From assembly GCA_035718705.1 (NCBI GenBank), contig DASTGW010000480.1, forward strand, positions 1 to 25,404: DNA of 25,404 bases, in the 5' to 3' direction. The notes below the pieces were generated by a model that had not been told where the DNA came from, did not search any database, and saw only the letters and a program-made list of their open reading frames with translations. Within the stretch, counting starts at the first letter, position 1, and each line of letters opens with the position of its first letter. This DNA is from Terriglobales bacterium. GTDB taxonomy: Bacteria; Acidobacteriota; Terriglobia; Terriglobales; Acidobacteriaceae. The position numbers were made by a program, and so were the translations under genes. Positions 7,364 to 25,404 of this stretch are shown here, piece after piece.

Positions 7364-7648
7364 ATGTCCTCATCCAAAGCTTCTATGGCCACTGAAAAAT
7401 CTCCTGCAGATAAGACGCCCGCCGAGATCAACTCGGAACTCCGTACTCTTGCCCACGACTTGAGCAACTCCATTGAGACGATCATGCAGGCGACGTACCT
7501 GCTGGCCCAAGCTCAAATGGATGACAACGGAAAGAAGTGGCTGGAGTTGATCGACAAGGCGTCGCGGGACGCTGCCCGAATTAATCGGGATATCCGGGAA
7601 CATCTGCGAGCACAAACCGCGCAGATGGGTCAGTCCGCCAAGAGCTAA
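7364..7648 (+). CDS. Stand-alone HisKA/DHp-like small protein (no ATPase domain)
   Basis: H-box-like LRTLAHDLSNSIETI followed by a second amphipathic helix (WLELIDKASRDAARINRDIREHL). AGGGG RBS-like sequence upstream. Alternative start at 7385. Confidence 0.7.
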   Translation: MSSSKASMATEKSPADKTPAEINSELRTLAHDLSNSIETIMQATYLLAQAQMDDNGKKWLELIDKASRDAARINRDIREHLRAQTAQMGQSAKS

Positions 7649-16579: not shown

Positions 16580-18208
16580 TTAAGCGGAGTTGCTGAGCGC
16601 GGTGTTAGCCTGTTTGACCGGCAGGAAGATGGAAAACACCGTACCGCTGTGACGACTGCTGGTGCTGCTGCGCATACGGATAAAGCCGCCGTGCTTCTGG
16701 ATGATGCCCTGGCACACCCAAAGTCCGAGCCCAGTTCCCTTCTCTCCCTTGGTGGTAAAAAACGGTTCGAAGATGCGCTGCGCATTGTCATGACGGATTC
16801 CGGGCCCGTCGTCGGCAATGATGATCCGCACGCCCGGTTTATGCGAGTTCATGTACTCATGGCTCGCATATACGCGAAGGCGAACTTGGCCTGATTCCGG
16901 TGAAGCTTCAATAGCATTTTCGAAAATATTGGAAATTACCTGGCGAAGTTCGTTTGGGAACCCGACTACATCGCCATTGAAATCGATTTCTTTATGAATG
17001 CGCAAGCTCTTGGCGCGCAATTGCTGACCATAAAGGTAGAGCACAGACTCCGCGAGATCGTTCAAGTTCACTCGCACAGGCAAGGTTGCGTCGCGATGGA
17101 AAGCGAGCGTCTGCTTCGTGATGTGAGCGACACGAGAGATCTCAGTCTGTGCAAGCTGGGCGTATTCCTTCAAGCTGGCGTCCAACCGGGGATCGGTCGC
17201 AAGCAGGTACAGAACGTTGGTGACGGCCGCGAGCGGATTATTGATCTCGTGCGCAATCGTCGCTGCCAGACGCCCAGTTGCAGCCAGGCGCTCGGAGCGG
17301 CGAAGATACTCTTCCGTGCGCTTTCGCTCTTCGATATCGAATAACGTAATTACCGCCCCCGATGCCGAATCCGCAGGAAGACGCAAAGGAGCAGCGCTGA
17401 GAAGAAGGTGGGTAAGCTCCCCTCCATTGTCAAAAACCACTTCAGCGCCGCGATAATTGGCACCCTGTAAAACCGACTTTACGTTGAACAATGTTGGCGG
17501 CTGGTCCTCCACGTGATCAGAGAAAGTCAACGGCAACACGCTTTCGAACGGAAGCATGAGCGTGTTCTTGCCACAAAGATTGTGGAATGCCTGGCTGGCA
17601 AGCACTACCTTTCCCGTTCCGTCGCAAACGGCGATAGCTTCCGCGGCCTGCTGAAGAATCAAGTGCGCTAATCTTCCCGCAGAAGCCACTTCTTCCTGCC
17701 GCTTCTGCTCGGTGAGATCGGTGAAGACCATGCAGACCGTGGTGGAAGCTTCCTGGAAAATATTGGCAGAGGCGAATACAGGGACTAGCAGTCCCAGGGC
17801 GTTCTTGAGACGAAGCTCGATCTTAGCGGGACCATCGAGCGGATGCTTATAAACCGAGTCGAAACGGTCCCGTTCGGTCTTCGGAACAAACTCATAAACG
17901 GAACGTCCAATGACATGATCGAGCGAGCAGGCAACAATCTCAGAGAAGGAATGATTGCAATAAAGGATAGTGCCATCGGCGCTGACCGTAACAGCGCCTT
18001 CCTTCATTCGTTCGACAAAGACGCGGTACGCCGCATCGGACCCAGCGAGGGTGAACACTTGGTTCCCGTTCGGTCCGGGAACTACGATGGCATCCACGTG
18101 ACCGTCGCGAATCGCGCCCAGAGTTTCTTCTGCCGCCGAAAGACGCGATTTTAGTTGTTCAATTTCCTCTAGGACCCGCTTATTGGCCCGCTGATTCGGT
18201 TCTGGCAT
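16580..18208 (-). CDS. Cytoplasmic PAS-PAS sensor histidine kinase
   Basis: N-terminal coiled coil plus two PAS-like domains. H-box IAHEINNPL, N-box QVISNIFENAIEA, G1 IADDGPGI, F-box IFEPFFTTK and G2 GTGLGL. No TM segments and no receiver. Confidence 0.93.
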   Translation of the reverse strand: MPEPNQRANKRVLEEIEQLKSRLSAAEETLGAIRDGHVDAIVVPGPNGNQVFTLAGSDAAYRVFVERMKEGAVTVSADGTILYCNHSFSEIVACSLDHVIGRSVYEFVPKTERDRFDSVYKHPLDGPAKIELRLKNALGLLVPVFASANIFQEASTTVCMVFTDLTEQKRQEEVASAGRLAHLILQQAAEAIAVCDGTGKVVLASQAFHNLCGKNTLMLPFESVLPLTFSDHVEDQPPTLFNVKSVLQGANYRGAEVVFDNGGELTHLLLSAAPLRLPADSASGAVITLFDIEERKRTEEYLRRSERLAATGRLAATIAHEINNPLAAVTNVLYLLATDPRLDASLKEYAQLAQTEISRVAHITKQTLAFHRDATLPVRVNLNDLAESVLYLYGQQLRAKSLRIHKEIDFNGDVVGFPNELRQVISNIFENAIEASPESGQVRLRVYASHEYMNSHKPGVRIIIADDGPGIRHDNAQRIFEPFFTTKGEKGTGLGLWVCQGIIQKHGGFIRMRSSTSSRHSGTVFSIFLPVKQANTALSNSA

Positions 18209-18572
18209 CCTTGTTCTTCGTCACGATGCCCAAGCCAGTCAGTACTTTCCCGATGTCGGACAGGTCACCGATGAAAGTTCTGCGAGGCGAGGGAGATAAT
18301 TTGATTAACGCAGGTGCGGCCAAAATGTCATCTTGCTTGGCCAGCGCCGGTTGTTGGTAGAGGTCGACGATCTCCAAGTCGCACTTGGAAGGATGCATCA
18401 GCCTACACAACTCCCGAACTTGTTGGATGGCGCGACTTGAATTTAGGTTTGTTCCGGCAATATACAATCTCAAGCCATATCTGGAAGAAGGCAATCCGCG
18501 CAGGATTTCCAGGATATCGTTGGCGTTAGAACCCAAGGCGACGATGTTCTTCTCATGTTTTCCTCTCGCCAT
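18180..18572 (-). CDS. kaiB: KaiB-family protein (second, divergent copy)
   Basis: YGLRLYIAG...SSRAI...EIVDLYQQPALAKQDDILAAPALIK...FIGDLSD. GAGGA RBS before ATG 18572 (the ORF track uses GTG 18593). Overlaps the kinase gene by 29 nt. Confidence 0.88.
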   Translation of the reverse strand: MARGKHEKNIVALGSNANDILEILRGLPSSRYGLRLYIAGTNLNSSRAIQQVRELCRLMHPSKCDLEIVDLYQQPALAKQDDILAAPALIKLSPSPRRTFIGDLSDIGKVLTGLGIVTKNKDARTESAGQ

Positions 18573-18603
18573 GAGTCTAAATTCCTCTGTCACAACGGCT
18601 TAG

Positions 18604-18954
18604 CTATCGAGCGGATCCGGCAGGCTTCAGGTCGAGCCCAACAAGCACTCGGTCGCGATTGGAAAGGTCGCCAATGATTTTCTTTACAGGAAAAGGCAAG
18701 CGGCGAACCAAGGTCGGGATGGCAACAATCTGGTCGCCCTTGGCGAGCGTCGGATTCTCGAGAAGATCAACAACCTCAATTTGGTATTGACCGCCCAAGT
18801 GGACTTCGCAGATTTCCTTCAGGTTGGCAAAAGCGGCGATGGAGTTTGGCGTATTGCCGGCAACATAGAGCCGCAGTAGCCACTTGGCAGATCTTGAACT
18901 GCTTAGTCGTGGAGTTTTTCTAGCCGTCTTCTTGGCACTTTTCTTTGCTGGCAT
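18604..18954 (-). CDS. kaiB: KaiB-family protein (canonical copy)
   Basis: [12 protein letters not shown]...[50 protein letters not shown], with a Lys-rich N-terminal extension. Confidence 0.93.
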
Positions 18955-18958
18955 CCAG

Positions 18959-20416
18959 TTAGCCTTTTCTGTTGCTTTCGACGGTCCTCGTATCTACCGG
19001 CGTCACCCGCACACCACGGCTGCTGATGGTGAATTCTCGCACATCGGCCGAATGTTCCATTCCGCGAGACTTCAAGACATAGATAAGTCTCCTGCGCGAG
19101 CCCTCTATTTCAAAGTCACGGACCATGATCCAAGTGTCCATCAACGAGGATATTTCCGTATTTGTTTCGGCTCTATCTCCAACCATAAGGTTGGTAAATA
19201 GTGCCGTGATTTGACGGCCCTTCAGGATGTCAACCAACCGAGTGAGCATCGCTTTCACCGACGTTGGCGTCCCGATGGAGATCAGGTTCGTGATGGGATC
19301 CACGGCAGCCACCTTCGGACGGAACTCGTCGAGGTCCTTGCAAATCGACGCAAGGTGGTTCTCGAGTCCGCGAGTGGTCGGACGTACCGCAATGATCTTT
19401 AACAGGCCCTGCTTGATCCATTTATCCAGACGAATGCCGAGCGAACGCATGTTGCGGAGAATCTGATCGGGTGACTCCTCGAAAGCAAAGTACAGAGCGC
19501 GCTCGCCGCGAGCGCACGCGGCATCGACGAAACTCGACGCGATGCTGGACTTGCCCGTACCCGCCGTTCCTGTAACCAAAACGCTGCTGCCTCGGAAGAA
19601 ACCAAGCCCGCCCATCATGTCGTCAAGCCCGGGCACACCGGTAAACACGCGTTCCGAAGAGGCTTTGTAATTGAGCCCAAGCGCGGTGATGGGGAGCACT
19701 GCGAGACCGTTGTGATCAAGCAGGAACGGATACTCGTTCGTGCCGTGTGTGGACCCACGGTACTTCACGACGCGAATGCGGCGAGTGGAGATCTGCTCAT
19801 TCACGCGATGATCGAGAAAGATCACGCAATCCGCGACGTACTCTTCGAGTCCGTGGCGAGTCAGCGTGGACCCGTCCCCTGCCTCCGCCGTGATGATTGA
19901 GGTTACGCCCCGATCCTTCAACCAACGGAACAGGCGACGCAATTCAGAGCGGACGATCGCTTCATTCCGAAGACCGGCGAAGAGAACTTCGATGGTATCG
20001 AGCAGCACCCGTTTGGCGTTAATCGATTTGATGGCGTGGTCGAGGCGAATAAAAAGACCTTCAAGATCGTATTCACCTGTTTCTTCGATCTGGCGGCGCT
20101 CGACGTGAACATAGTCGATGGCGATTTTCTTGCGCCTTATGAGCGCATTGAGGTCATGCCCAAGCGATGCCATGTTCGAAGTAATTTCTTCTGGAGTTTC
20201 TTCGAAGGTCATCGCCACGCCCGGTTCGCCATACTGCATGGCGCCCTGCACAAGGAACTCCATCCCAAGGAGCGTTTTGCCGGATCCGGCGCCTCCAGCA
20301 ACTAGAGTGGTACGGCCCCTGGGCAAACCACCATTGGTAATGTTGTCCAGCCCGGAAATGCCCGTTGGAGTTTTTTCAATCGTAGATGGAATCTTGCTCT
20401 TAGTCGCAGGTGACAT
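18959..20416 (-). CDS. kaiC: Double-domain KaiC-family ATPase/autokinase
   Basis: CI has [12 protein letters not shown] and KYRG. CII has [12 protein letters not shown] and KSRG. The phosphosite region reads EISSLMDTW. Directly followed by two kaiB genes. Confidence 0.95.
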
Positions 20417-20470
20417 GCATGTTACCGGAACGATGGATATTAAATGATATTTACAGTTTTGTGCGCGCCT

Positions 20471-21331
20471 TCATCGAGATTTTGAGAGCTGCTGTTTCAA
20501 TTGCTCTTCAAACGCCTCGCGGGAATGATCCAGATAGGCCTGGTATTCCGAAGGATTGACGAACGGGTTCCTATCCTCATGCGCGGCCAACCGCGCTCGC
20601 TTTTTGTTTAGATCAAAGAAGGAACCGTGAGAGCCCAGCAGGATGTCGCAAGGAAGCGTTCTGAGTTTGCTGAAGGTGTTTCGAAAGTCCTCAACAATAC
20701 CAGGGTAGCTGGAATTTCTTACCAGCTGATAACCCGGCGCGCTGGTGCTGCAGACGAAAACTACGTTCAAAGACTTCCCGTTCTCTTTTGTTTGCGTCGT
20801 CCAGGTGGTGCATCCCTTGGTGTGTCCGGGTGTGAGATGCGCCGTCATCACGGCATCACCGACCTGCACAGTCTGGCCGTCTGTGATAATGCGGTCAGCC
20901 TTCACAGGCGTGTACTGATACTTATCTCCCCAAGCAAAGTCGCCTTTGCCGCCGGCTGCTATCTGCGCAGAATCACCTTGGCTGACCACGAACTTCGCTC
21001 CAGTCCATTGCTTGAGCAGCGCCAGGCCGGCTGCGTGATCGAAGTGCGCTTGACTGTTGAGCAGATACTTCACATCGCTCAGCTTGAAGCCGAGCTTCTG
21101 GATGTTGTCGCGAATTTGCGGCGCGGTTTCCGCGAAACCACCGTCGAGCAGGATGTGCCCTTTCGGGCTGGTGATCAGAAACGAAGTGATTTCATTTGCC
21201 CCAACGTAATAGACGTTTCCTGCAATGCGAAAAGGTTCAACGGGCTGGTTCCAGGAGCGCCATTCGGGATTTGTCTGTGCGAGCCCGAAAGTGCAGAAGA
21301 ACAATAGCAGTGTCGTACTGAGAAGTTTCAT
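20471..21331 (-). CDS. Subclass B3 metallo-beta-lactamase-fold protein (Gln116 variant)
   Basis: Signal peptide from ATG 21331. PFRIAGNVYYVG, ILLDGG, SQAHFDH (normally HxHxDH), TPGHTKGC (His196) and LLGSHG (His263). Confidence 0.85.
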   Translation of the reverse strand: MKLLSTTLLLFFCTFGLAQTNPEWRSWNQPVEPFRIAGNVYYVGANEITSFLITSPKGHILLDGGFAETAPQIRDNIQKLGFKLSDVKYLLNSQAHFDHAAGLALLKQWTGAKFVVSQGDSAQIAAGGKGDFAWGDKYQYTPVKADRIITDGQTVQVGDAVMTAHLTPGHTKGCTTWTTQTKENGKSLNVVFVCSTSAPGYQLVRNSSYPGIVEDFRNTFSKLRTLPCDILLGSHGSFFDLNKKRARLAAHEDRNPFVNPSEYQAYLDHSREAFEEQLKQQLSKSR

Positions 21332-21422
21332 TGCAGGTTGGGAGATCGCCGCGCGAGCCACGGAACTATACGGTAGCTTTTGAAAAAAACAAAGCTATTT
21401 GGACGTCAGCAGGGACGAATGC

Positions 21423-21818
21423 TTATTTCGCCTTCGGCAGCGAAGTACGCACCAGACGAATGAGCTCGGGAGGTGGACAGGGTTTCATGCGGAAGAAGAC
21501 ATTGAGGCCTTCGTATTCCTCTTCCGCATCTGCCATTCCGCTAATAACGATGACAGGCACCTTGGGCTTGAGCTCCCGCAATGCGCGAACAAATACGGCG
21601 CCGCTGGCGCCCGGCATCACGTGATCGGTAACGATGGCGCCAATACGATCGCCAGCTTCGGTGCGCAGAAATCCGAGGGCGGTTTCAGCCGTGGTAGCGA
21701 CATCGACCTCAAGCCCGGCATCGCGCAACACGGCCTCACGCACCCGCAGTTGTAGCGGGTCGTCGTCAATCAGTAGAACGCGATTTGCCGGCGAAGATGG
21801 TACGACTTGATTATCCAA
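21423..21818 (-). CDS. Single-domain response regulator (CheY-like receiver)
   Basis: VLLIDDD acidic pocket, phosphoacceptor VTDHVMPG, VISG and the conserved KP. No output domain. TTG start, position uncertain. Confidence 0.88.
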   Translation of the reverse strand: MDNQVVPSSPANRVLLIDDDPLQLRVREAVLRDAGLEVDVATTAETALGFLRTEAGDRIGAIVTDHVMPGASGAVFVRALRELKPKVPVIVISGMADAEEEYEGLNVFFRMKPCPPPELIRLVRTSLPKAK

Positions 21819-22275: not shown

Positions 22276-25200
22276 TCAATGGAAATCGTGTGAATTTGTT
22301 TGCGCATCAGTGACGACTAATGGCAGAACGCGATCGGCCTTCACCGAAACAACATTGTCGACGTTCTGCAGGATGCCTTCCACCAGCAGGAAGCGCTCGC
22401 TAACCAGCAACAACCGGTTTTTTTCGAATAGATCAGGGGTAACGATCGCGTTAGCAATGCCGGTTTCATCTTCAAGGCTGAGGAACACGAACCCATGCGC
22501 GGTTCCGGGTCGTTGGCGCGCAATCACGCAACCTGCGGTTTTAACTCGGACGCCATTTCGCATTTTGGGAAGTACCATTGCGGGACGCACGCCACGACGA
22601 TTCAGATCGGCGCGGTGGTACGTCATCGGATGCGGTCCAACGGTAAGTCCGGTACCGCGAAAGTCAGCGACCAGGCGTTCCTCGTTCGACATCATGGCGA
22701 GTGGAGAATTCTGGTCGAGTTCCTGTATGCCTTCGAGCAATGGCCCAGCCTCGCGTGCTGCTCGTTCCACTTGCCAGAGTGCGTCCCGACGATGAAGCTT
22801 CAGACCGTTGGCACCAGTGCTGCCAATATTGTTCAACGCACCGATGTCAGCCAGAATAACAAGCTCATTCTTTCGAAGCCCGGGCACACGACGAACCAGA
22901 TCGGCGATGGAATGAAATGGTGCTTTGTCCCGCTCCGCGACGATCGCTCTCGCAACTTCTGCACGCATCCCGCGGACGTAATTCAAGCCGAGACGGACCA
23001 CAAACGGATCGTGGCTCGTGGTTCTTGACTCGTGCTTCAAATCCGGCTCCAACGTGCATTCGTAATCGGACTTCACAATATCGATAGGGCGCATCTTCAG
23101 GCCATGACGCTGCGCGTCTTTCACCAGCGTCGACGGATGATAGAAGCCCATCGGCTGATTGTTCAACATGGCAGCGGTAAAGGCCGCGAGGTAATGACAC
23201 TTCAGAAAGGCACTGGCATAAGCGAGCAGCGCGAAGCTTGCGGCATGTGATTCGGGGAAGCCGTAAAGCGCGAAGGAAGTAATGGAATGAATGATCTGGT
23301 CCTGCGTTTCGCCCAGGATGCCGTTCGCGGCCATCCCCTCACGCAGTTTTACTTCGATATCCCGCATACGCGCTTCAGACCGCTTAAATCCAAACGCACG
23401 ACGCAGTTCTTCGGCTTGTCCGCCGGTGAAGTTCGCCGCGACCATGGCGATGCGAATCAGTTGCTCCTGGAAGAGCGGAACGCCAAGCGTGCGCTTGAGG
23501 ATCGGCTCAAGCGAAGGATGCGCGTACGAAACCTCCTCCTTGTTCTGACGTCGCCGGATATACGGGTTCACCATTTCGCCAACGATCGGTCCCGGGCGAA
23601 TCAACGCCACCTGCACCACGATGTCATAGAACTTTACCGGGCGTAGTCGCGGCAAACATGACATCTGCGCGCGACTTTCCACCTGGAACATGCCGACCGT
23701 ATCGGCTTTCCGCAGAGTGCTGAACACTTCTTCGTCATCGGCGGGAAGAAGCGCCAAATCGACCACTTCCCCATAGTGCGGTGGAATGAGATCGAGGCAA
23801 TCCTCCAGAACGGCCATCATGCCGAGCCCGAGCAGATCGACTTTGATGATGCCCATGTCGGCGCAATCTTCTTTGTCCCACTGCACCACCACACGGTCCG
23901 GCATGCTGGCGGGTTCAAGAGGGACAACGGAATCAAGTTGTCCCTGGCAAATGACCATCCCGCCGGAATGTTGGCCGAGATGCCGCGGCAAATCCTGCAC
24001 GGCGACAGCGAGCTCCACGAATTTGCGCATGCGCGGATGGCGCAGGTCGAAACCGGCGTCACGGAACTGGCGCTCCAGCGTATCCTGCGGACCTTTGTAT
24101 TCCCACGAACCGACAACGGAAGCCAGCCGTCCGAGCGTTTCATTGTCGAAGCCCATGGCTTTGCCGATTTCGCGTGCGGCCAGGCGCCCGCGATACGTAA
24201 TGACGTTCGCCGTCATGGCAGCGCCCAGCCTGCCGTAGCGTTGATATACGTACTGAATCACGCGCTCGCGCTGATCTCCACTGGGCAGGTCAAGATCGAT
24301 ATCGGGCCACTCGCCACGTTCTTCGGAAAGAAAACGTTCGAAGAGCAGTTCCATCTTCACCGGATCGACCGCAGTAATGCCCAGTGCGTAACAGACAGCG
24401 CTGTTGGCAGCCGAACCTCGACCTTGTACAAGGATGTCTTCCTTCCGGCAGAAGCGAATGATGTCCCAGACAATGATGAAATAGCCCGCCAGGTCGAGTT
24501 TCTCAATCAACGCCAGTTCGCGCTCAATCTGCTGATGCGCACGCTCGCGAAGTTCATCTGTCGCTTTTAAATACCTCTCATCTTCGCCTTCTCGACAAAG
24601 TTTGCGCAGATAAGAATTAATAGTGTGGCCTGCAGGAACGGGATACTTCGGAAACTCATAGCCGAGATCGCTCAGTTTGAACTCAATTCGAGAAGACAAC
24701 ACTTCGGTATTCGCGATGGCTTCCGGCAAGTCGGCGAACATGCGTTCCATCTCTTGTGGCGACTTGATGTGGCGCTCGGAATTTTGTGCGAGCAGGCGTC
24801 CAGCAGCATCAAGCGTGACATGGTTGCGAATGCAGCTAAGGACATCGAGAATCTGCCGACGCTCAGGCACGGCATAGCTCACACCGTTGGTTGCAATCAG
24901 GGGTAAATCGAGTTCACGGGCGATGGCGATCGCAGCCTGATTGCGCGACTCTTCTTCGCGATCGAAGTGCCGCTGCAGCTCGACGTAAACATTCTCACGT
25001 CCATAAATTTCAGTCAGCGTGAATACAGCACCTCGAGCGGCCTGATATCCGCCGTCACGCAAAGCCGCTGCGATTGGACCGCGCTCATCTCCGGTGAGAC
25101 AAATGAACCCTTCGCTATACTCACGAAGATCATCAAGCGTTGCGGCCGTAACCACAGGATCGCAGTTCTTCGGCCCCCGTGCCTTCATGCGCGTGACGAG

Positions 25201-25404
25201 GCGGCACAGATTCTGATAACCGGTGCGATCGCGACAAAGTAATGGCACATGAATGGTGCTTTTCGGGCCACGAACCGCGGGCCACGAACCCCGCATAGTG
25301 ATTTCCGCCCCGATATGCGCCTTCAGTCCTAGCTTTTCAGCGGCAAGATGAAAGCGCGCCGATCCATAGACGCCATCGCGATCGAGCAGCGCCATCGATT
25401 TCAT
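22276..25404 (-). CDS. dnaE2: Error-prone DNA polymerase III alpha DnaE2 (ImuC); probably 5'-partial
   Basis: GRGSAANS, WPDIDLD, RHLGQHSGG, KVDLLGLG, YGFPESHAASFA, QRPGTAHG and the C-terminal SHDFH typical of DnaE2. The window starts inside the PHP domain: the usual N-terminal ELHxHS segment is absent, so the true start likely lies beyond 25404. Confidence 0.95.
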   Translation of the reverse strand: MKSMALLDRDGVYGSARFHLAAEKLGLKAHIGAEITMRGSWPAVRGPKSTIHVPLLCRDRTGYQNLCRLVTRMKARGPKNCDPVVTAATLDDLREYSEGFICLTGDERGPIAAALRDGGYQAARGAVFTLTEIYGRENVYVELQRHFDREEESRNQAAIAIARELDLPLIATNGVSYAVPERRQILDVLSCIRNHVTLDAAGRLLAQNSERHIKSPQEMERMFADLPEAIANTEVLSSRIEFKLSDLGYEFPKYPVPAGHTINSYLRKLCREGEDERYLKATDELRERAHQQIERELALIEKLDLAGYFIIVWDIIRFCRKEDILVQGRGSAANSAVCYALGITAVDPVKMELLFERFLSEERGEWPDIDLDLPSGDQRERVIQYVYQRYGRLGAAMTANVITYRGRLAAREIGKAMGFDNETLGRLASVVGSWEYKGPQDTLERQFRDAGFDLRHPRMRKFVELAVAVQDLPRHLGQHSGGMVICQGQLDSVVPLEPASMPDRVVVQWDKEDCADMGIIKVDLLGLGMMAVLEDCLDLIPPHYGEVVDLALLPADDEEVFSTLRKADTVGMFQVESRAQMSCLPRLRPVKFYDIVVQVALIRPGPIVGEMVNPYIRRRQNKEEVSYAHPSLEPILKRTLGVPLFQEQLIRIAMVAANFTGGQAEELRRAFGFKRSEARMRDIEVKLREGMAANGILGETQDQIIHSITSFALYGFPESHAASFALLAYASAFLKCHYLAAFTAAMLNNQPMGFYHPSTLVKDAQRHGLKMRPIDIVKSDYECTLEPDLKHESRTTSHDPFVVRLGLNYVRGMRAEVARAIVAERDKAPFHSIADLVRRVPGLRKNELVILADIGALNNIGSTGANGLKLHRRDALWQVERAAREAGPLLEGIQELDQNSPLAMMSNEERLVADFRGTGLTVGPHPMTYHRADLNRRGVRPAMVLPKMRNGVRVKTAGCVIARQRPGTAHGFVFLSLEDETGIANAIVTPDLFEKNRLLLVSERFLLVEGILQNVDNVVSVKADRVLPLVVTDAQTNSHDFH
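23009..23036 (+). repeat. Four tandem degenerate heptamers inside dnaE2
   Basis: TCGTGGC TCGTGGT TCTTGAC TCGTGCT. Encodes KHESRTTSHD on the minus strand. Confidence 0.75.
25264..25290 (-). repeat. 14-nt-period direct repeat (heptamer-based) inside dnaE2
   Basis: CGGGCCACGAACC is exact at 25264 and 25278. The minus strand reads TCGTGGC CCGCGGT TCGTGGC. Encodes GSWPAVRGP. Confidence 0.75.

Follow-up and report, generated by a model that had tools for sequence, protein, structure and literature searches.

What a KaiC protein, two KaiB proteins and a histidine kinase do together in a soil bacterium with, as far as its assembly shows, neither KaiA nor photosynthesis genes is the question raised by a 25,404-nucleotide (nt) stretch of DNA from a Terriglobales bacterium of the Acidobacteriota (GenBank assembly GCA_035718705.1, contig DASTGW010000480.1). 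The whole of this stretch is referred to as the window. The cyanobacterial clock is presumed to have evolved from KaiA-less KaiBC systems. To our knowledge, the only one understood mechanistically is that of Rhodobacter sphaeroides, and its published mechanism rests on a coiled-coil tail of KaiC. The comparisons presented here point to a KaiA-independent KaiBC signaling module, orthologous to the hourglass operon of R. sphaeroides, in a non-phototrophic soil acidobacterium; a probability of roughly 0.7 is given to this reading. Judged by its genes, the operon appears to be of a known kind, a Rhodobacter-type KaiBC system with a dedicated output, and to depart from it in three respects, namely the lack of the coil tail, an extra KaiB and a kinase of the HisKA type.

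The operon consists of four intact, co-oriented open reading frames (ORFs) on the minus strand in the order kaiC, kaiB-1, kaiB-2 and histidine kinase (Table 1). The tight packing described in the initial annotation is exact, with 4 nt between kaiC and kaiB-1, 31 nt between the two kaiB genes and a 29-nt overlap between kaiB-2 and the kinase gene. The 31-nt gap follows from an ATG start for kaiB-2; this ATG is preceded at 9 nt by a GAGGAA ribosome-binding site and was also picked by gene callers in other assemblies. An alternative GTG at 18593 would give a protein of 137 amino acids (aa) and a 10-nt gap. The 29-nt overlap suggests translational coupling and matched dosage of KaiB-2 and the kinase. 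The last gene does encode a histidine kinase, as first described, and one that is catalytically complete by its motifs: the HEINNPL H box at residue 320, the N box at 427, the DDGPG G1 box at 466, the FEPFF F box at 480 and the GTGLGL G2 box at 491. Its HisKA and HATPase_c domains pass the Pfam cut-offs, and NF006800 covers just the catalytic half of the protein. No obvious membrane-spanning segment is seen by eye in the translation, and the kinase is predicted to be soluble. Its N-terminus carries a coiled coil, the motif AIRxGxVDAxVV...G..VFTL and a PAS domain, an assembly that opens the gene after kaiB in related loci and is referred to below as the module.

The family to which the operon belongs is defined by its KaiC. 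The protein matches Pfam KaiC (PF06745) in two stretches and scores 682.5 bits against NF006799 (cut-off 408) and 357.6 bits against the cyanobacterial model TIGR02655, under the cut-off of 546. The nearest solved KaiC is that of R. sphaeroides (8DB3/8DBA), with ∼572 bits over residues 13-473 by HMMER and 56% identity over the core by tblastn, compared with ∼332 bits for cyanobacterial KaiC, and the earlier classification as a KaiBC-only system of the Rhodobacter type is upheld by these scores. Both Walker A motifs (GGAGSGKT at 41 and GTAGTGKS at 283) and both catalytic EE pairs (72-73 and 313-314) are present, and S423 and S424 align with the phosphosites S413 and S414 of KaiC-RS. The CII allosteric residues named by Pitsawong et al. 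are also kept in the alignment (W429, Y446, L448, V459 and R460). Two serines at the phosphorylation sites characterize the KaiC2 subgroup (Schmelling 2017, PMC5520375), and the alignment establishes a KaiC of the KaiC2 (Ser-Ser) type that keeps both predicted ATPase sites and both phosphosites. In R. sphaeroides KD131, the kaiC-kaiB-HWE kinase genes of plasmid pRSKD131A (structures 8DBA, 8FWI and 8FWJ) share with the window the Ser-Ser KaiC2, the absence of KaiA, the gene order and the coiled-coil/PAS module with which the kinase opens. The window adds a second KaiB, has a HisKA-type rather than an HWE kinase and comes from a non-phototroph. Its KaiC is 485 aa long without a tail, in contrast with the 570-aa R. 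sphaeroides protein, the coiled-coil tail of which serves dodecamer formation and dephosphorylation (PMC10076222). The cyanobacterial KaiABC-SasA/KidA system has the KaiC ATPase/kinase and KaiB in common with the window, whereas the window is KaiA-less, carries Ser-Ser rather than Ser-Thr and remains under the TIGR02655 cut-off.

The missing tail was assessed in a comparison set of 81 related loci. The window KaiC ends 12 residues past the conserved core and 14 residues beyond query position 471, the point from which tails were counted. In most of the 81 loci, a coiled-coil extension of 94-116 residues follows this position. Twenty-two Acidobacteriota loci, the window among them, have tails of only 3-38 residues. 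The window KaiC thus falls short of the C-terminal extension of ∼50 residues or more by which the coiled coil is recognized (Pitsawong 2023, PMC10076222). A frameshift or assembly artefact as the source of the short protein was considered and rejected, because kaiB starts 4 nt past the kaiC stop, 21 related loci have short tails and the identical protein is present in three independent assemblies; the same KaiC and gene order recur in a farmland-soil assembly and two other sequencing runs. In a maximum-likelihood tree, the coil-less KaiCs form one Acidobacteriota group of 22 rows (support 88/96; 98/99 for the inner 19 rows), surrounded by clades from many phyla whose KaiCs carry the coil. The parsimonious interpretation for this group is that the coil was lost secondarily, although this is not proven, since the KaiC tree has a polytomy at its base and very long branches lead to the outgroups. 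Two further short tails lie outside this main clade, one of 39 residues in a Pyrinomonadaceae locus (L083) nested in a coil-bearing clade and one of 20 residues in a Gemmatimonadales locus (L030), which suggests independent losses of the coil or, in L083, a frameshift in the metagenome-assembled genome (MAG).

The consequences of a missing coil can be anticipated from Rhodobacter delta-coil KaiC, which forms a hexamer, shows normal phosphorylation and nucleotide exchange with little autodephosphorylation, and is broken into monomers by KaiB binding (PMC10076222). By analogy, the tail-less window KaiC would be expected to form a hexamer rather than a dodecamer. Its own dephosphorylation would be poor, and resetting would consequently lean more on KaiB, nucleotide state or protein turnover. 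By inference, the window KaiC would be a KaiA-independent autokinase to which the published coil-based reset mechanism is not available.

The host genome fits a KaiA-less, non-phototrophic system. The assembly, of which the window is contig C480, spans 4.12 Mb in 705 contigs and is 88.5% complete, and the nearest KaiC, KaiB and kinase loci are those of Terriglobia/Terriglobales MAGs. A search of the whole 4.12-Mb assembly with the KaiA model (PF07688) gave no match, with the Synechococcus positive control matched, and the absence of kaiA first noted for the window extends to all of the assembled genome. The KaiA3-KaiB3-KaiC3 system has a chimeric receiver/KaiA-like gene directly upstream of kaiB3 (Koebler 2024, PMC11372060). 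By gene order and the KaiA Pfam model, there is no such gene directly 5' of kaiB in the window; the gene upstream of kaiC encodes a B3 metallo-beta-lactamase, and a nearby receiver of 131 aa is too short for KaiA3. Whole-genome searches found no type I or type II reaction centres, nothing above cut-off for BchL and no rhodopsin, for which the family control also gave no match. Within the limits of an incomplete MAG, these results agree with the apparently non-photosynthetic host of the initial annotation.

Both KaiB genes of the genome sit in the operon. There are three further double-domain KaiC paralogues on other contigs (Table 1); two have an overlapping HisKA kinase downstream (N-terminal region of ∼160 aa) and no KaiB, and the third adjoins a STAS-domain protein. 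The two KaiC-kinase pairs match the 'KaiC-Nt_HK' context of De Luca (PMC3164672). By its gene content, the organism would thus have several KaiC-based signaling modules.

The two KaiB paralogues are clearly distinct. Both are recognized by Pfam PF07689 (cut-off 27), with 92.3 bits for KaiB-1 and 75.5 bits for KaiB-2, and they are 41% identical to each other. The NCBIfam model NF006798 (cut-off 110) is narrowly missed by KaiB-1, at 109.9 bits, and lies well above the 68.5 bits of KaiB-2. The nearest solved relative of KaiB-1 is KaiB-RS (8FWJ_M, 107 bits). In a tree of 136 KaiB sequences, the position-1 copies form one clade of 77 rows (support 100/99) and the position-2 copies fall outside it, a split which argues that the duplication is old. 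Position-1 proteins have 26 invariant columns and position-2 proteins nine, and much of the core shared without change by both paralogues is retained in KaiB-2. KaiB-1 and nearly all position-1 proteins have the residues equivalent to G89 and D91 (glycine in 69/69, aspartate in 67/69). KaiB-2 has glycine at the D91 equivalent, a residue present there in 7 of the 52 position-2 proteins overall, including the other Terriglobia copies. In published work, a D91R substitution favors fold-switched KaiB (PMC11665890).

Fold states were modeled using AlphaFold2 with paralogue-specific alignments. KaiB-1 is predicted to be ground-state-like and best matches ground-state KaiB crystal structures, with low confidence in the switching half. 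KaiB-2 is predicted to adopt a thioredoxin-like fold (predicted local distance difference test, pLDDT, 76), for which the closest structure is Legionella KaiB 4KUN (template-modeling score 0.87, target-normalized); other top matches are fold-switch-stabilized KaiB, KaiC-bound KaiB-RS and the SasA N-domain. KaiB-1 is by sequence the canonical KaiB and probably a fold-switcher; on these models, KaiB-2 is probably locked in the thioredoxin fold. Legionella pneumophila likewise has a KaiA-less KaiBC system in a non-phototroph, and a role in the stress response is said to have been proposed for its kai operon.

The Legionella comparison raises the possibility that the operon encodes an ATPase switch for oxidative, osmotic or starvation stress that gates the kinase with no time-keeping. 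This would suit a non-phototrophic soil host, and it gains from the resemblance of the KaiB-2 model to 4KUN and from the three additional KaiC paralogues, two with kinases and one with a STAS protein, which suggest a general signaling use of KaiC in this organism. Set against it are a KaiC far closer to the Rhodobacter hourglass protein than to other solved KaiCs, the retention of its CII allosteric residues and the daily cycles of temperature and moisture that reach soil surfaces. A stress switch is a real possibility, if short of a likely one. It would overlap with a Rhodobacter-type KaiBC module rather than exclude it. Timing and energy or stress sensing would look alike at the level of sequence.

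The strongest evidence of a functional tie between the kinase and KaiB/KaiC is the association of the module with kaiB. A profile of 167 positions was built for the module, and its scores fall into two well-separated sets: full-length hits reach at least 83 bits and begin no later than profile position 14, and generic PAS domains start at about position 44. The window module scores 204 bits. The 301 Acidobacteriota genomes contain 14 full-length hits, every one of them located within ∼120 nt downstream of kaiB (13/13 if an unpublished genome, G024, is left out). A second phylum, sampled by 251 genomes centred on Geomonas, has the module directly after kaiB in 15 of 17 cases; one exception is at a contig end and the other is a second copy in a cassette-bearing genome. 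Over the two phyla and 552 genomes, 29 of 31 full-length copies stand directly after kaiB, and none of the module-bearing genomes in the surveyed sets is without KaiB. The motif occurs once in the 4.1-Mb genome of the window itself, and four genomes of other phyla have exactly one copy each, at the Kai locus. The module is also present in the Pararhizobium protein and in the R. sphaeroides KD131 kinase, the latter with an hhalign probability of 99.5%. A search of 1.84 billion representative proteins gave no usable estimate of family size, as multi-PAS repeats swamped the scores.

Behind this N-terminus, which 49 loci share at 21-49% identity, the effector varies. Among 46 module proteins, a histidine kinase follows in 31, receiver domains in 14, a sigma-54 activator in 9, GGDEF/EAL domains in 2 and an HWE kinase in 2. 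An invariant N-terminus before exchangeable effectors argues that the kinase is an output of the Kai proteins and not their input. The proposed wiring to a two-component output is strongly supported by the module comparison; its description as direct is an inference, as no response regulator is conserved with the operon.

A KaiB-like thioredoxin domain fused to the N-terminus is the mark of a SasA-type kinase. The window kinase starts instead with the coiled coil and PAS domain, and the thioredoxin-fold KaiB-like element that is fused to the kinase in SasA would be represented in the window by KaiB-2, a separate gene overlapping that of the kinase. In cyanobacteria, the PAS domains of KidA bind fold-switched KaiB; PAS genes beside kai genes are common outside cyanobacteria, and PAS-KaiB binding has been proposed as a general feature (PMC9478674).

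KaiB-2 and the module are also linked. Every assessable two-KaiB locus among the 81 has a module, either full length or, in L078, N-terminally truncated, and a clade of 14 Acidobacteriota loci with a coil-less kaiC and a single kaiB ('Ca. Angelobacter' and relatives; Table 1) has no Kai-linked module within 6 kb. In L018, a locus of this clade, the end of kaiB is overlapped by an ORF of 146 aa that has a weak, receiver-like match (PDE8A_N).

An alternative role for KaiB-2 is that of a competitor or decoy, which would occupy the KaiB site of KaiC or titrate KaiB-1 and so tune a threshold, with the module binding KaiC itself. The retention of much of the invariant KaiB core in KaiB-2 is compatible with such a role, and so are the cassettes that have a module and no KaiB-2; in cyanobacteria, SasA and KaiB do compete for one site (PMC11665890). 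The linkage of KaiB-2 and the module across the 81 loci, together with the 29-nt overlap of the kaiB-2 and kinase genes, makes the decoy role unlikely.

Reversal of the signal, with PAS domains that sense redox, oxygen or light and a kinase that sets the state of KaiC, is improbable. PAS domains are typical ligand sensors, and an input role was originally suggested for the Rhodobacter operon and has been raised in the literature for R. sphaeroides and R. rubrum (PMC5520375, PMC10931921). However, the same module precedes sigma-54 activators, GGDEF/EAL proteins, receivers and two classes of kinase, which have no obvious action on KaiC. The conserved part of these proteins is the end encoded beside kaiB and the variable part is the C-terminus, a pattern expected of output proteins.

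By tblastn and profile search, the order kaiC-kaiB-kaiB-signaling gene recurs in most of 80 related loci and in many phyla, including Acidobacteriota, Thermodesulfobacteriota, Verrucomicrobiota, Nitrospirota, Planctomycetota, Pseudomonadota and others. Such recurrence goes far beyond chance, and the order is not peculiar to this lineage. The view that four intact ORFs with complete catalytic motifs, encoding identical proteins in the same order in three independent assemblies and kept in synteny across phyla, are chance neighbors or decaying remnants with no joint function is effectively refuted. The gene order, KaiB paralogues and module of the window are matched on plasmid p3 of Pararhizobium qamdonense T808, where tandem KaiBs are already annotated in RefSeq, and in Geomonas propionica. 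These cassettes of other phyla have KaiC tails of 94-116 residues, in contrast with the tail-less window, and their outputs are hybrid kinases or receivers, sigma-54 activators and GGDEF/EAL proteins.

Related arrangements have been described in the literature. A survey in 2011 noted a histidine kinase or GGDEF/EAL gene after kaiC-kaiB (De Luca, PMC3164672), and operons of the kaiC-kaiB-PAS/HK type that lack KaiA have been recorded in R. sphaeroides and Rhodopseudomonas palustris; in the latter, where the term 'kaiC-B-PAS/HK operon' is used, fitness in light/dark cycles depends on kaiC (Ma 2016, PMC4794148). A single KaiB and a phototrophic host are described for R. palustris, unlike the two KaiBs and non-phototrophic host of the window. 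The arrangement was rightly said in the initial annotation to be known from such surveys (PMC4794148, PMC3164672), and its prevalence, in most of 80 loci, was underrated there. A limited literature search found no account of tandem KaiB paralogues, of the Kai-specific N-terminal module or of coil-less KaiC2. Variations on the cassette include a Thermodesulfobacteriota genome with three tandem KaiB genes before the module (G428:C95:25043-26638) and a locus with two kaiC-kaiB units in tandem (L070:6001-10662).

A mechanism can be proposed for the window operon on the pattern of a Rhodobacter-type KaiBC module. KaiC would autophosphorylate without KaiA, and its phosphorylation and nucleotide state would track the cellular ATP/ADP ratio. 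KaiB-1 would switch fold and bind the CI ring of phosphorylated KaiC. The N-terminal module would allow the kinase to read the state of the Kai complex, probably through docking to a KaiB in the thioredoxin fold; KaiB-2, if constitutively thioredoxin-like, would be the likeliest adaptor, by analogy with KidA PAS-KaiB binding and the SasA N-domain. The resulting change in autophosphorylation would pass phosphate to a response regulator encoded elsewhere, for which a receiver encoded in the window is one candidate.

A more specific version of this mechanism is put forward tentatively, as a doubtful extension. KaiB-2 and the module may form a split SasA-like output device, in which a thioredoxin-locked KaiB-2 would dock the kinase on KaiC without a slow fold switch and KaiB-1 would be the delayed, switchable arm. 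The coil-less KaiC may be a hexameric phospho-latch; loss of the coil would turn the hourglass into a latch, with reset by KaiB-driven disassembly of the ring or by turnover, instead of coil-mediated autodephosphorylation.

Several points weigh against a Rhodobacter-type KaiBC module with a dedicated output, or against parts of it. The absences in the host come from an 88.5%-complete MAG and are provisional. AlphaFold2 fold states derived from clade-specific alignments are contested in the literature, and confidence in the KaiB-1 model is low (pLDDT 63); the fold difference between the two KaiBs is thus taken as a hint. R. sphaeroides and six Acidobacteriota genomes combine the module with just one KaiB, so KaiB-2 is dispensable for coupling the module. 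In the nearest relatives, the cassette has no conserved response-regulator neighbor. The 54-nt gap upstream of kaiC, proposed in the initial annotation as an AT-rich region that could hold a promoter of the operon, is of the stated length and only moderately AT-rich (G+C 41% compared with ∼55% in the window), and a consensus scan of the operon strand found no sigma-70-like promoter in it. A promoter in this gap is a possibility, and the operon could also be transcribed together with the beta-lactamase gene on the far side of the 54 nt. A promoter/terminator scan found no terminator after the kinase gene on the operon strand; the stop codons of the kinase gene and a convergent esterase gene are 3 nt apart.

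Table 1. Location of the operon, its neighbors and related loci cited in the text (window positions unless a locus is named).
Feature	Location	Strand	Description
kaiC	18959-20416	-	485 aa, double-domain protein of KaiC2 (Ser-Ser) type, without C-terminal coiled-coil tail
kaiB-1	18604-18954	-	Position-1 paralogue, 116 aa; Pfam KaiB
kaiB-2	18180-18572	-	Position-2 paralogue, 130 aa from ATG; divergent, Pfam KaiB
Histidine kinase gene	16580-18208	-	542 aa; PAS, weak second PAS, HisKA, HATPase_c (Pfam)
Kai-linked N-terminal module of kinase	17681-18181	-	Residues 10-176: coiled coil, motif, first PAS
Intergenic gap 5' of kaiC	20417-20470	-	54 nt, AT-rich core; possible operon promoter
Subclass B3 metallo-beta-lactamase gene	20471-21361	-	NF033105, 352 bits; signal-peptide-like N-terminus; directly upstream of kaiC
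Stand-alone receiver-domain gene	21423-21818	-	Pfam Response_reg, 58 bits; candidate kinase partner, membership uncertain
dnaE2	22276-25404		Error-prone polymerase; receiver gene lies between dnaE2 and the beta-lactamase gene
Further KaiC paralogue, contig C48 of G000	L094:2853-5551
Further KaiC paralogue, contig C366 of G000	L095:1896-4351
Further KaiC paralogue, contig C537 of G000	L093:2467-5706
Single-kaiB clade	L011, L012, L016-L021, L023, L032, L037, L043, L069, L081		14 loci

The candidate partner of the kinase is a stand-alone receiver of 131 aa in which the acidic pocket, Asp, Ser and Lys are all present. Its gene, absent from the initial annotation of the operon, is ∼1 kb upstream of kaiC on the same strand, with the B3 metallo-beta-lactamase gene in between, and this order is also found in the farmland-soil contig. 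Receivers follow the kinase in some related loci. The window receiver was rejected as a syntenic response regulator, as it is not conserved beside related cassettes, and is retained only as a candidate. Other features of the neighborhood include a B3 metallo-beta-lactamase motif that reads SQAHFDH, in which Gln replaces the first His, and an 81-aa DUF2934 gene between the receiver gene and dnaE2 (L096:1322-1567). Elsewhere in the window, a 94-aa ORF at 7364-7648 on the plus strand has no Pfam match and contains a central stretch (LAHDLSNSIETI...) that is similar to the H box of histidine kinases.

The operon bears on the wider family of Kai systems in two ways. A natural coil-less clade with the same KaiC core makes the in vivo role of the coil testable with natural proteins. 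The comparison also points to the output step of non-cyanobacterial Kai systems, with a putative docking module bound to kaiB by gene order and a second KaiB for which a different fold is predicted. In soil ecology, such a cassette would let a heterotroph tie its gene regulation to energy state or to daily cycles.

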